The position numbers and the translations under genes were made by a program. Shown here one piece after another: positions 25,157 to 28,105 of a stretch of DNA of 43,496 nucleotides. How positions within the stretch are numbered: position 1 is the stretch's first letter; every line of letters begins with the position of its first letter. Origin of the DNA: an uncultured archaeon (GTDB taxonomy: Archaea > Asgardarchaeota > Lokiarchaeia > Sigyniarchaeales > SOKP01); NCBI GenBank assembly GCA_964508365.1, contig CAZDTP010000033.1, forward strand, positions 1 through 43,496. Reading direction: 5' to 3'. Under the pieces are notes generated by a model. It was not told where the DNA came from. It searched no databases and was given only the letters and a program-made list of their open reading frames with translations.

Positions 25157-27972
25157 TTATTTTATTATTATCGCAGGTTTCCCAGGTAACCCTTGAGCCG
25201 CTTTGTTTTCTTGCGATTCATTTTCTGGGATGATACTTACTTTACATTTATATTTCTTTTCATAAATATTTTTAATCTCAAAAAAGAAATTAAATTCATC
25301 TATGGCATTGATTGGTGATTTAACATATTTCCCAAGATTCTTCAATACTTTAATGACTGTTTGAGAAATAAATTTCCCTTTTGTTTTAAATTCTTTATTT
25401 TCCATTAATTTTCCAATTATTTCTCTTTGATCTTTTGATTTTTCTGCTAATGAGAGAAGTTTCAGCATTACATCGAATTTCCATTCAGCTGCAATAATAA
25501 TAATCATCTCTGTCAGTTTTTCTTTCTTTATAATTTGAATTATATGATTAATTGAGTCAACAGTATTATTCATTAAATTCCATTTGTAATCATTTTCAAC
25601 AGAAAGGATATTTTTATCATAGTTAGGCCAAAGGGCTAAACTTAAAAAGCTCTTTTTTCCCATTTGCTCCCATAATTCCTCAGTCATATGAGGTACAAAT
25701 GGATGAAGTAATAATATTAAATTCTCTTTACATTTGTCAAAAACTTCCTTATAAACCCCCTCAGACTTATACCTACTTATTTCGGAAGTAAATTGGATGA
25801 TTTCGTTAATGGCATCCCTAATTGACAATATATTTAACGATTCGCTTACGATTTTTATTGTTTTATTAAGGGTATATTCAATAAGGGTATCTCTAATTAT
25901 TTTCTCATTTCTGATGGTTTCTGGGGGTTCTTTTAATAATGTAAATGTGTTTTTTACATATTTGAAAGCAAAATCTACACCTTCATCAGACCATTCCAAA
26001 CCGGATTGGGGACTGGCTCCAAAAAGAATAAAAAATCGAGCCGCGTCTGCTCCATATTTATTCATCAACCCAATTGGATTCACCGTATTACCGTAACTTT
26101 TACTCATCTTAACGCTTTTTAATATATACTTGGTTCCACATCTTTTACAGCTTTCGCTCGTCATTTCAGCTTTCATAGCAAATGTCCCACAATTAGAGCA
26201 ATAAGGATGCGCTTTGTTAACCATCCCTTGAGTCAATAGTCGCTGGAAGGGCTCATCAAACGAATGAAACCCAAGATCTCGAGCAACTCTAGTGAAAAAA
26301 CGTGCGTACATTAAATGGAGAATTCCGTGCTCAATACCACCTATATATTGGTCAACATTCATCCAGTAATCGGCGATATCTTTTCTATATGGTAAATTTT
26401 CCTCATTTGGATCGCAATAACGAAAGAAATACCACGAACTATCTACGAAAGTATCCATCGTATCGGTTTCTCTTCTTGCTTGAATACCACATTGTGGACA
26501 CGAGGTATTAACAAAAGATTCACTCGTTTTCAAAGGATTTCCTTTTCCCGTGAATTTTACATCTTTCGGTAATTCAACAGGTAAATCTTCGTAGGGAACG
26601 GGCACAATTCCACAGGTATCGCAGTATATAATTGGTATAGGGCATCCCCAATAGCGTTGTCGGGAAATTAGCCAATCTCTTAGTTTGTAATTAACAGTTT
26701 CCTCTCCCATTCCTATTTCTTCTAATTTTTTTGACATAGATTTTATCGCGGATCGGTTTTCCATCCCATTAAACTCTTCTGAGTTTATTAAAGTTCCGTC
26801 ACCTTCGTACGCTCTGGTCATTTTTTCAGCGTTCAATTCGTATTCAAAAGGTTGAATAACAACCTTTATTGGAATATTATATTTCACTGCGAACTGAAAA
26901 TCTCGGGAATCATGTGCGGGAACAGACATTACGGCTCCAGCACCGTATTCGTAAATGACAAAATTTCCAATATATATAGGTATTTCCTCTTTATTTAGTG
27001 GGTTAATCGCGTGTTTTCCGATAAATATACCTTTCTTCTCGACTTCGATATCTGTTCTTTGAAATTTATTCTGTCTAATAGTTTCTGTATATAGGTTCTG
27101 AAAATCAGATTCGTATTCAGTCTCTTCTACCCATTCCTTGACCCAAGGATGCTCGGGGGCAAATACCATAAACGTGACCCCATACAGCGTATCTGGGCGA
27201 GTAGTAAAAATGTCAATGGTTCTTTTTTCCCCCACAATTGGAAATTTAATTATTGTTCCCTCCGATCTTCCAATCCAGTTACGTTGCATAGTTTTCACTT
27301 TATTTGGCCAGTCTACCTTGTCTAATCCATCTAAAAGTTCTTCGGCATAGTCTCGGATTTTTAAGAACCACTGGGTTAAAAATTGTTGTTCAACTTCCGA
27401 ACTACAGCGCCAACATTTGCCACTTTGAACTTGCTCGTTAGCTAGCACAGTTACACATTTTGGGCACCAATTCACATAACTTTCTTGTCTATAAGCCAAA
27501 CCCTTCTCGTACATTTTTAAGAAAAACCATTGATCCCACTTGTAATAATTAGGGTCGTGAGAATAGACCATCCGGGTCCAATCGTAAGAAAGTCCTATTC
27601 GCTTTTGCTGTTTTTGAATTGATTCTATATTTTTGTTTGTCCACTCTTCGGGATTTACACCGTGGTCAATTGCCGCGTTCTCTGCGGGTAGTCCAAAGCT
27701 CTTATGGTATTCTCTTATTGGGAAGTACAATCATAGCCCATTGGATAGAGGACATTGAACCCGCACATTCGTTTGTATCGTGCAAATGAATCTCCTATTG
27801 AATAATTACGTAGGTGTCCTATATGTAAATCAGAACTGGGATAAGGATACATTTCCAGTACATAATATTTTTTTTTATCAGGATCTTCTTTGACTTCGAA
27901 GATTTTCTCTTCTTCCCATTTTTTTTGCCATTTTTTCTCGATTTTTTGAAAATCGTATTCAATATTAGTCAT
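25157..27972 (-). CDS. leuS: Leucine--tRNA ligase, interrupted by a 29-nt putative intron; join(complement 27730..27972, 25157..27700), 928 aa
   Basis: Exon 1 (81 codons): [12 protein letters not shown]...LYPMGYD. Exon 2: [75 protein letters not shown]. The ORF track shows it as 27715..27972 plus 25157..27730. Confidence 0.93.
27701..27729 (-). other. Putative bulge-helix-bulge (tRNA-type) intron in leuS mRNA, phase 0
   Basis: Insert TGTACTTCCCAATAAGAGAATACCATAAG between GAT (Asp81) and AGC (Ser82); 29 nt, in-frame TAA. GGC/GCU helix, central helix UAUG/CAUA, bulges AU^U and AG^A, inner helix GUA/UAC plus UUC/GAA, outer UCCAA/UUGGA. Confidence 0.85.
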
Positions 27973-28105
27973 TTTGTGTCAAAATCGTTTTTTTAAAGTT
28001 GAATATTAAAATATAAACTGAAATAATTTATACAATAAATTTTTTTTGATATGGGGTATATTCTTAATCAAAAAGATTATAGTAACTGTAATACTTGTAT
28101 GACCA

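Follow-up and report, generated by a model that had tools for sequence, protein, structure and literature searches.

Results

The window examined here, a 43,496-nucleotide (nt) stretch of DNA from an archaeal metagenome-assembled genome (MAG), carries on its minus strand a gene for a bacterial-type leucyl-tRNA synthetase (leuS, encoding LeuRS) whose reading frame is broken by a 29-nt insert. Judged from this sequence and its homologues, the insert is a real feature of the gene and very probably a spliced mRNA intron of the archaeal bulge-helix-bulge (BHB) type. An earlier note on this DNA had proposed that reading, and every sequence-level prediction of a BHB-spliced mRNA intron that was tested agrees with the results below. 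The MAG has a size of 4.07 Mb and is 100% complete, and the window is its contig C33. The organism belongs to the Promethearchaeota (Loki-type Asgard archaea), as the closest public loci are from Promethearchaeota/Promethearchaeia, formerly Lokiarchaeota, which bears out the probable Asgard host named in the earlier note. Coordinates without a contig or locus name are window positions, and leuS lies on the minus strand throughout.

The insert splits leuS within a conserved motif

Exon 1 (27730-27972) comprises 81 codons, from the start Met to ..PMGYD, holds the HIGH motif, and matches positions 1-76 of TIGR00396, the NCBIfam profile of bacterial-type LeuRS. Exon 2 (25157-27700) comprises 847 codons and a stop, and matches profile positions 77-781 with 832 bits. 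Between them the minus strand reads ..CCA AUG GGC UAU GAU, then the 29 nt of the intron (27729-27701), then AGC UUU GGA... The two matches abut, at TIGR00396 positions 76 and 77, and therefore no residue is missing or in excess once exactly these 29 nt are taken out. The joined exons encode 81 + 847 = 928 amino acids (aa), with GGCUAUGAU-AGCUUUGGA as the predicted exon-exon junction, as the earlier note had concluded. The boundaries of the insert cannot slide, because the bases flanking each boundary differ. Insert-free relatives show an uninterrupted GYD-S(F/Y)GLPAENAA across the site.

The earlier note was also right that the insert splits leuS, shifts the frame and contains an in-frame TAA (UAA in the RNA). 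The unspliced frame shifts and reaches TAA, and open reading frame (ORF) callers give ORFs of 85 aa and 857 aa instead of the full-length protein. Its expectation that annotation pipelines would call a frameshifted pseudogene holds in that ORF callers do break the gene; the result is two ORFs. A JGI metagenome contig that was assembled independently contains all 29 nt without a single difference, and the frame-breaking length is therefore not a sequencing slip.

The insert and its flanks form a bulge-helix-bulge motif

The whole hBHBh' motif spans 27692-27745 and is defined by the window sequence together with pair counts over 14 homologues. The outer exon-exon helices pair 27736-27738 with 27697-27699 (GGC/GCU) and, as an extension in the window's copy, 27741-27745 with 27692-27696 (UCCAA/UUGGA). 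The central helix of 4 base pairs (bp), UAUG/CAUA, pairs 27732-27735 with 27703-27706, and the inner helix begins with GUA/UAC (27726-27728 with 27707-27709). The two 3-nt bulges lie on opposite strands: bulge 1 is AUU (27729-27731), with the predicted cut between 27730 and 27729, and bulge 2 is AGA (27700-27702), with the predicted cut between 27701 and 27700. The intron runs from the last nt of bulge 1 through a hairpin and the 3' strand (CAUA) of the central helix to the first two nt of bulge 2. In the window's copy the hairpin has 7 bp, one bulged C, one C.A mismatch and a 5-nt loop (AAUAA).

Cuts between nt 2 and 3 of each bulge (AU^U and AG^A) are exactly the two boundaries that the protein requires. 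This agreement between the cut rule and the frame had been pointed out before, and it extends to the 29-, 30- and 31-nt forms of the insert described below. The inner, central and GGC/GCU helices and the bulges are all as the earlier note had described them. The outermost UCCAA/UUGGA helix, which it had also listed, is present in the window's copy, but one of its pairs holds in only 4 of the 14 homologues. The chance of a BHB with 11 required pairs is ~4e-5 per position-and-length combination (34,812/8.6e8 in the host genome).

Homologous inserts covary in their stems

Homologues were collected from 40 relatives in the order, from a scan of GTDB species genomes and from a pattern scan of metagenomes. 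Most of the 40 relatives have an uninterrupted leuS of ~933 aa, and five species of the same genus among them have a 30-nt insert at the identical site. An alignment of leuS for presence, absence and covariation, which the earlier note had proposed as a check, gives 14 distinct inserts at this site. Twelve are 30 nt long, one (the window's) is 29 nt and one is 31 nt, and apart from the window's they come from at least 13 further leuS genes of Promethearchaeota. The length variation sits within the hairpin, not at the boundaries. Read-through is impossible for any of the inserts: the 29- and 31-nt forms change the frame, and every 30-nt form examined contains TAA or TGA in frame.

Standard pairs occupy 92.5% of the cells in the 14-sequence alignment, compared with 29-48% when the partners are slid against each other. 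The central helix is invariant and paired in 14/14 sequences, the bulge lengths are invariant, and the outer and inner helices are paired in 89% and 92% of cells. Compensatory changes on both sides are found in six of the nine intron-stem pairs, and all of 500 shuffles score lower for covariation than the observed alignment. Codon usage in the paired exon segments also differs between intron-bearing and intron-less genes: the Tyr codon is TAT in 11/11 versus 57/79, the Gly codon is GGY in 11/11 versus 50/79, and the Ser codon is AGY in 11/11 versus 16/79, counts that are descriptive and carry no test, as the sequences are related to one another. By these counts, the exon bases that pair in the helices are constrained in intron-bearing leuS.

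These patterns bear on two explanations that need no splicing. In the first, an N-terminal piece of 81-85 aa and a re-initiated exon-2 piece of ~820-857 aa would assemble into a split LeuRS. A split LeuRS exists in Aquifex aeolicus, which provides a precedent, and gene callers do report two ORFs in the present gene. However, the break falls within the conserved motif GYD-SFGLPAE, and the start of the exon-2 ORF is not conserved, being a TTG inside the insert in the window's copy and giving ORFs of 820, 837, 852 and 860 aa in relatives. A split protein would also leave the invariant 4-bp helix and 3-nt bulges, the stem covariation and the constraint on exon bases unexplained, and we consider it very improbable. 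The second explanation is translational bypassing or programmed frameshifting, in which the hairpin would play the part of the bypass element of T4 gene 60. The stable hairpin and the stop codon within the gap are what such an element would offer, but there are no matched take-off and landing codons (GAU or GAC precedes the insert, and AAG or AAA ends it), and frameshifting cannot pass the in-frame stops of the 30-nt forms. In addition, bypassing has no need of the pairing among exon 1, the intron 3' end and exon 2, a feature specific to a BHB. We give this explanation a probability close to negligible.

Selection on the interrupted gene and its archaeal-type companion

The exons were compared among intron-bearing genes. 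The translated exon-1 stretch contains no stop or frameshift in intron-bearing genes. In every intron-bearing gene that could be traced to its natural stop, exon 2 is open throughout, and in the remaining ones it is open as far as the sequence reaches, with the sole exception of a second insert in genome G009. Pairs of intron-bearing leuS genes show ratios of nonsynonymous to synonymous change (dN/dS) of 0.05-0.12, with synonymous sites near saturation (proportion of synonymous differences, pS, ~0.75) and the intron ~90% identical. In two sister pairs in which both members bear the intron, dN/dS is 0.11 and 0.07, and exon 1 of these pairs is also constrained, with nonsynonymous proportions (pN) of 0.016 versus a pS of 0.17 and of 0.029 versus a pS of 0.44. 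These values point to strong purifying selection on both exons; a gene dead since the insertion would look otherwise.

The interrupted gene is the bacterial-type leuS (TIGR00396), and the host genome has an intact archaeal-type leuS elsewhere (contig C56:2325-5192), a 972-aa ORF that scores 922 bits on TIGR00395. Bacterial-type leuS is found above the family cut-off in 33 of the 40 genomes of the order, many of which also have long archaeal-type ORFs, and two types of LeuRS seem to be common in the order. Because of the intact archaeal-type gene, the supply of LeuRS does not hinge on splicing, and the earlier statement that it depends on the splicing machinery was too strong.

Given the companion gene, the insert might alternatively have disabled a redundant leuS, leaving the bacterial-type copy a young pseudogene while the archaeal-type LeuRS does the work. 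Both the intact archaeal-type gene and the broken frame speak for it. Against it stand at least 14 distinct inserts across lineages with saturated synonymous sites and no other exon lesion seen, the dN/dS of 0.05-0.12 that includes intron-bearing sisters, and an insert that is far more conserved than synonymous sites and has compensatory changes in its stem. We regard a pseudogene as exceedingly doubtful. The earlier note had named a second intact leuS together with decay of this copy as evidence that would count against an intron; the second gene was found, and decay was not.

Candidate splicing machinery and proposed mechanism

The host genome encodes two paralogs of the tRNA endonuclease EndA, of 200 and 201 aa and 28% identical to each other, both with N-terminal and catalytic domains (PF01974 plus PF02778; 96.5 and 69.4 bits). 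They lie at C9:62003-62605 and C1:52034-52639. The His of the catalytic motif is kept in only one of the two. An (alpha-beta)2 EndA with broad specificity has been reported for Asgard archaea (PMC5829648), and the pair found here fits such an enzyme by its sequence features. RtcB is encoded on contig C18 (559 bits). ARAGORN calls only 29 tRNA genes in this complete MAG, 17 of them with introns and several with odd anticodons. This result is compatible with tRNA genes that are heavily interrupted and with a splicing system in frequent use, and it suggests that many tRNA genes of this genome are hidden by non-canonical introns. To judge by its title as cited in PMC5829648, a 2006 paper by Yoshinari et al. 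linked the (alpha-beta)2 type of EndA to archaeal pre-mRNA splicing.

In the mechanism we propose, the leuS pre-mRNA would fold so that two 3-nt bulges surround UAUG/CAUA, flanked by the exon-exon helix on one side and the intron hairpin on the other. EndA, probably a heterotetramer with the catalytic alpha subunit from contig C9 and the structural beta subunit from contig C1, would then cut between the second and third nt of each bulge (AU^U and AG^A). RtcB would ligate the exons and probably circularise the intron, yielding an mRNA for the 928-aa LeuRS. Cleavage and ligation themselves are what we infer from the observed geometry, frame, covariation, selection and enzyme genes. The arrival of the intron would postdate the transfer of the bacterial-type leuS into the archaeal lineage, and recombination that swaps intron-bearing and intron-less 5' segments would contribute to the patchy distribution of the intron within one genus-level clade.

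Removal of the insert by machinery other than EndA and RtcB, or an insert that is an assembly artefact, keeps only a very slender probability, for which nothing specific speaks beyond residual uncertainty. An artefact is at odds with the same 29 nt in an independent assembly and with homologues in many MAGs from different studies. For other machinery, the geometry of the insert is exactly the definition of an EndA substrate, and an Rfam search of 27400-28100 gave no match at E<=1. Group I and group II introns were rejected on the same search and on size, as a ribozyme core takes up hundreds of nt and could not fit into 29-31 nt.

Evidence weighing against a BHB-spliced intron

Several results count against the conclusion that the insert is removed by BHB splicing, or give it no support. 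Among homologous proteins no spliced form was found, and the only 100%-identical ones are the unspliced 857-aa ORFs. The metagenome pattern scan, which allowed gaps of 0-30 nt, yielded no spliced transcript; it matched 113 stretches, and of the 80 loci listed 74 are intron-less, with none more than 81% identical to an intron-bearing species. The second, intact leuS means that the cell could in principle tolerate the loss of the bacterial-type copy.

Folding calculations add further points of this kind. The single-sequence fold of the window's copy has a z-score of -0.25, and its hairpin is weakened by a 1-nt deletion. The BHB conformer has a negative energy, yet it lies 2-16 kcal/mol above the minimum free energy. 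RNAalifold recovers the hairpin and the exon-exon helix independently, and it leaves the central helix open. Thermodynamic folding by itself does not favour the central helix and is unusable as structural evidence.

The host genome was also scanned for BHB motifs whose removal joins two open frames, with two parameter sets and with shifted partners as controls, a search for further inserts that the earlier note had called for. There is no excess over the controls (187 versus 171-183 and 158 versus 168-204), although the scan did surface one 30-nt case, on contig C3. The leuS intron was not among its hits, since the scan relied on an ungapped stem and the 1-nt deletion interrupts that of the hairpin. 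Since there is no enrichment, the scan cannot estimate the number of mRNA introns in this genome.

The intron is patchily distributed and is lost by recombination in at least one case

A covariance model of the intron and its flanks (R1) finds the intron in 9 of the 42 species genomes of the genus, and over these 42 genomes it finds no paralogous intron outside leuS. A tree of 101 leuS sequences places all 11 intron-bearing rows in one genus-level clade and implies at least seven gains or losses of the intron. The leuS genes of DPANN and of more distant Promethearchaeota in the tree are without the intron.

A comparison of two closely related loci, L287 and L288, indicates how an intron can be lost. 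The leuS of L287 is intron-less and encodes 928 aa. That of L288 is intron-bearing, and in the segments compared (exon 1 and ~1 kb of exon 2) it is identical to the gene of genome G023. The two loci are ~30% divergent in the ~360 alignment columns at the 5' end (L287:601-960 versus L288:349-740), a stretch that takes in the intron site together with exon 1 and ~85 nt of exon 2. Past these columns they are ~96% identical over 1,040 nt, each 90-nt interval from there to the gene's end shows 1-12 differences, and the upstream flank of L287 is 92% identical to that of the related intron-bearing genome G006. The L287 version of the divergent 5' stretch has no close relative in the sequence set sampled. 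A divergent 5' tract amid near-identical flanks therefore indicates that the intron was lost through the replacement of ~0.35 kb by a foreign intron-less allele, and that at least one intron loss by recombination, with a tract of about this length, has taken place.

The window's copy shows a mosaic of another kind. Within +-60 nt of the junction it has 18 differences to the intron-bearing L047 and 23 to its sister L032, whereas outside this interval it has 56 differences to L047 and 25 to L032. The pattern is suggestive of intron gain through a short conversion tract, and the pairing constraint on the exons may explain part of the mosaic.

Two further loci deserve mention. The G005 MAG, which has 8% contamination, contains both intron-bearing and intron-less bacterial-type leuS fragments (C152:26994-29204 and C30:71-1795); they represent either two co-binned strains or a real polymorphism. 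The leuS of L118 (CAYGYC010000004.1) breaks past exon-2 residue 322 and has stops thereafter. This break is an abrupt loss of homology to the window's protein and not an insert, and it may reflect a misassembly or a truncated gene.

Further BHB inserts in a relative and in the host genome

The second leuS insert of G009, a genome of the same genus, is 30 nt long (L047:3514-3543, minus strand, contig C316) and lies between ..HDPKYYK and WDQWFF... It has two in-frame TAG codons, a central helix CUAU/AUAG, bulges AAA and AGA and a 10-bp hairpin. The adjacent outer helix is only 2 bp, which makes it a relaxed BHB, and the cut rule restores the frame. This insert was seen in no other leuS sampled.

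Two other genes of the host genome are interrupted in a similar way. In the aIF2-gamma gene, a 29-nt BHB insert (C43:14337-14365, minus strand; L167:2679-2707) with a central helix AUGG/CUAU and bulges AAU and AAA interrupts the G1 motif (GHVDHG|KT), and the match of this gene to TIGR03680 begins only at position 18. A gene of the AIR-synthase family contains a perfect 30-nt BHB (C3:30946-30975, minus strand; L166:1447-1476), the case that surfaced in the genome scan. Its central helix is ACGU/GCGU, its hairpin pairs in 10/10 and its outer helix in 5/5 positions, and its removal joins frames of 157 and 300 codons. The downstream part matches AIRS and AIRS_C, with AIRS matched from profile position 43. 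The introns in leuS, aIF2-gamma and the AIR-synthase gene are of the same size class and architecture and have no sequence similarity to one another. In a blastn-short search against the host genome the introns match only themselves, which indicates that they are not copies of a repeated mobile sequence.

With moderate confidence, we propose that many protein-coding genes of Loki-type Asgard archaea harbour mini-introns spliced by EndA and RtcB, and that the leuS intron belongs to this dynamic population. Such introns would invade even genes of bacterial origin, and they would be gained and lost through homologous recombination between intron-bearing and intron-less alleles.

Discussion

In the searchable literature, crenarchaeal cbf5 is the only archaeal protein-coding gene for which splicing by the tRNA endonuclease is documented. 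We found nothing on BHB introns in protein-coding genes of Asgard archaea in the literature searched, which did not cover subscription journals. The leuS case would extend BHB splicing of coding sequences to an aminoacyl-tRNA synthetase gene in an Asgard archaeon, and its comparative support is unusually strong, with 14 homologous introns, covariation and selection on both exons. A bacterial-type host gene makes it probable that the intron was gained within the archaeal lineage. Together, L287 and L288 offer a concrete mechanism of intron turnover, in which ~0.35 kb would be replaced by recombination.

There are also practical consequences. Gene callers that split such genes would distort annotation, completeness estimates and pseudogene counts for Asgard MAGs. 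The leuS BHB, at ~55 nt, would be a compact natural substrate for testing the specificity of Asgard EndA.

The cbf5 pre-mRNA intron (Watanabe 2002; Yoshinari 2006) occurs in Desulfurococcales and Sulfolobales, its motif is frequently relaxed, and its cut between the second and third bulge residues has been verified with cDNA (Yokobori 2009, PMC2738675). The leuS intron resembles it in being of BHB type within a coding sequence, in the position of the cut and in the hetero-oligomeric EndA, features that are in part predicted here, as well as in its lineage-specific presence and absence and in being mis-called by annotation. It differs in its host gene, a bacterial-type leuS, and in its phylum, the Promethearchaeota, so that the two would work alike and yet belong to different intron lineages. 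The leuS motif is a fully canonical hBHBh', and the intron is only 29-31 nt long. The interrupted leuS is a paralog that coexists with an intact archaeal-type leuS, and at least one loss of the intron can be traced to a recombination tract. Whereas the cbf5 intron is proven by cDNA, the leuS intron is known here from DNA sequence.

Many non-canonical tRNA introns have been described in Asgard archaea (bioRxiv 10.64898/2026.10.13.758758; PMC5829648). The BHB introns of archaeal tRNA and rRNA share with the leuS intron the motif, the predicted enzymes and the cut positions. Unlike in those introns, the host RNA is an mRNA, and the exon halves of the helices are codons (Gly-Tyr-Asp and Ser-Phe). 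Because its helices are built from codons, the structure of the leuS intron would constrain synonymous sites of the gene that it interrupts.

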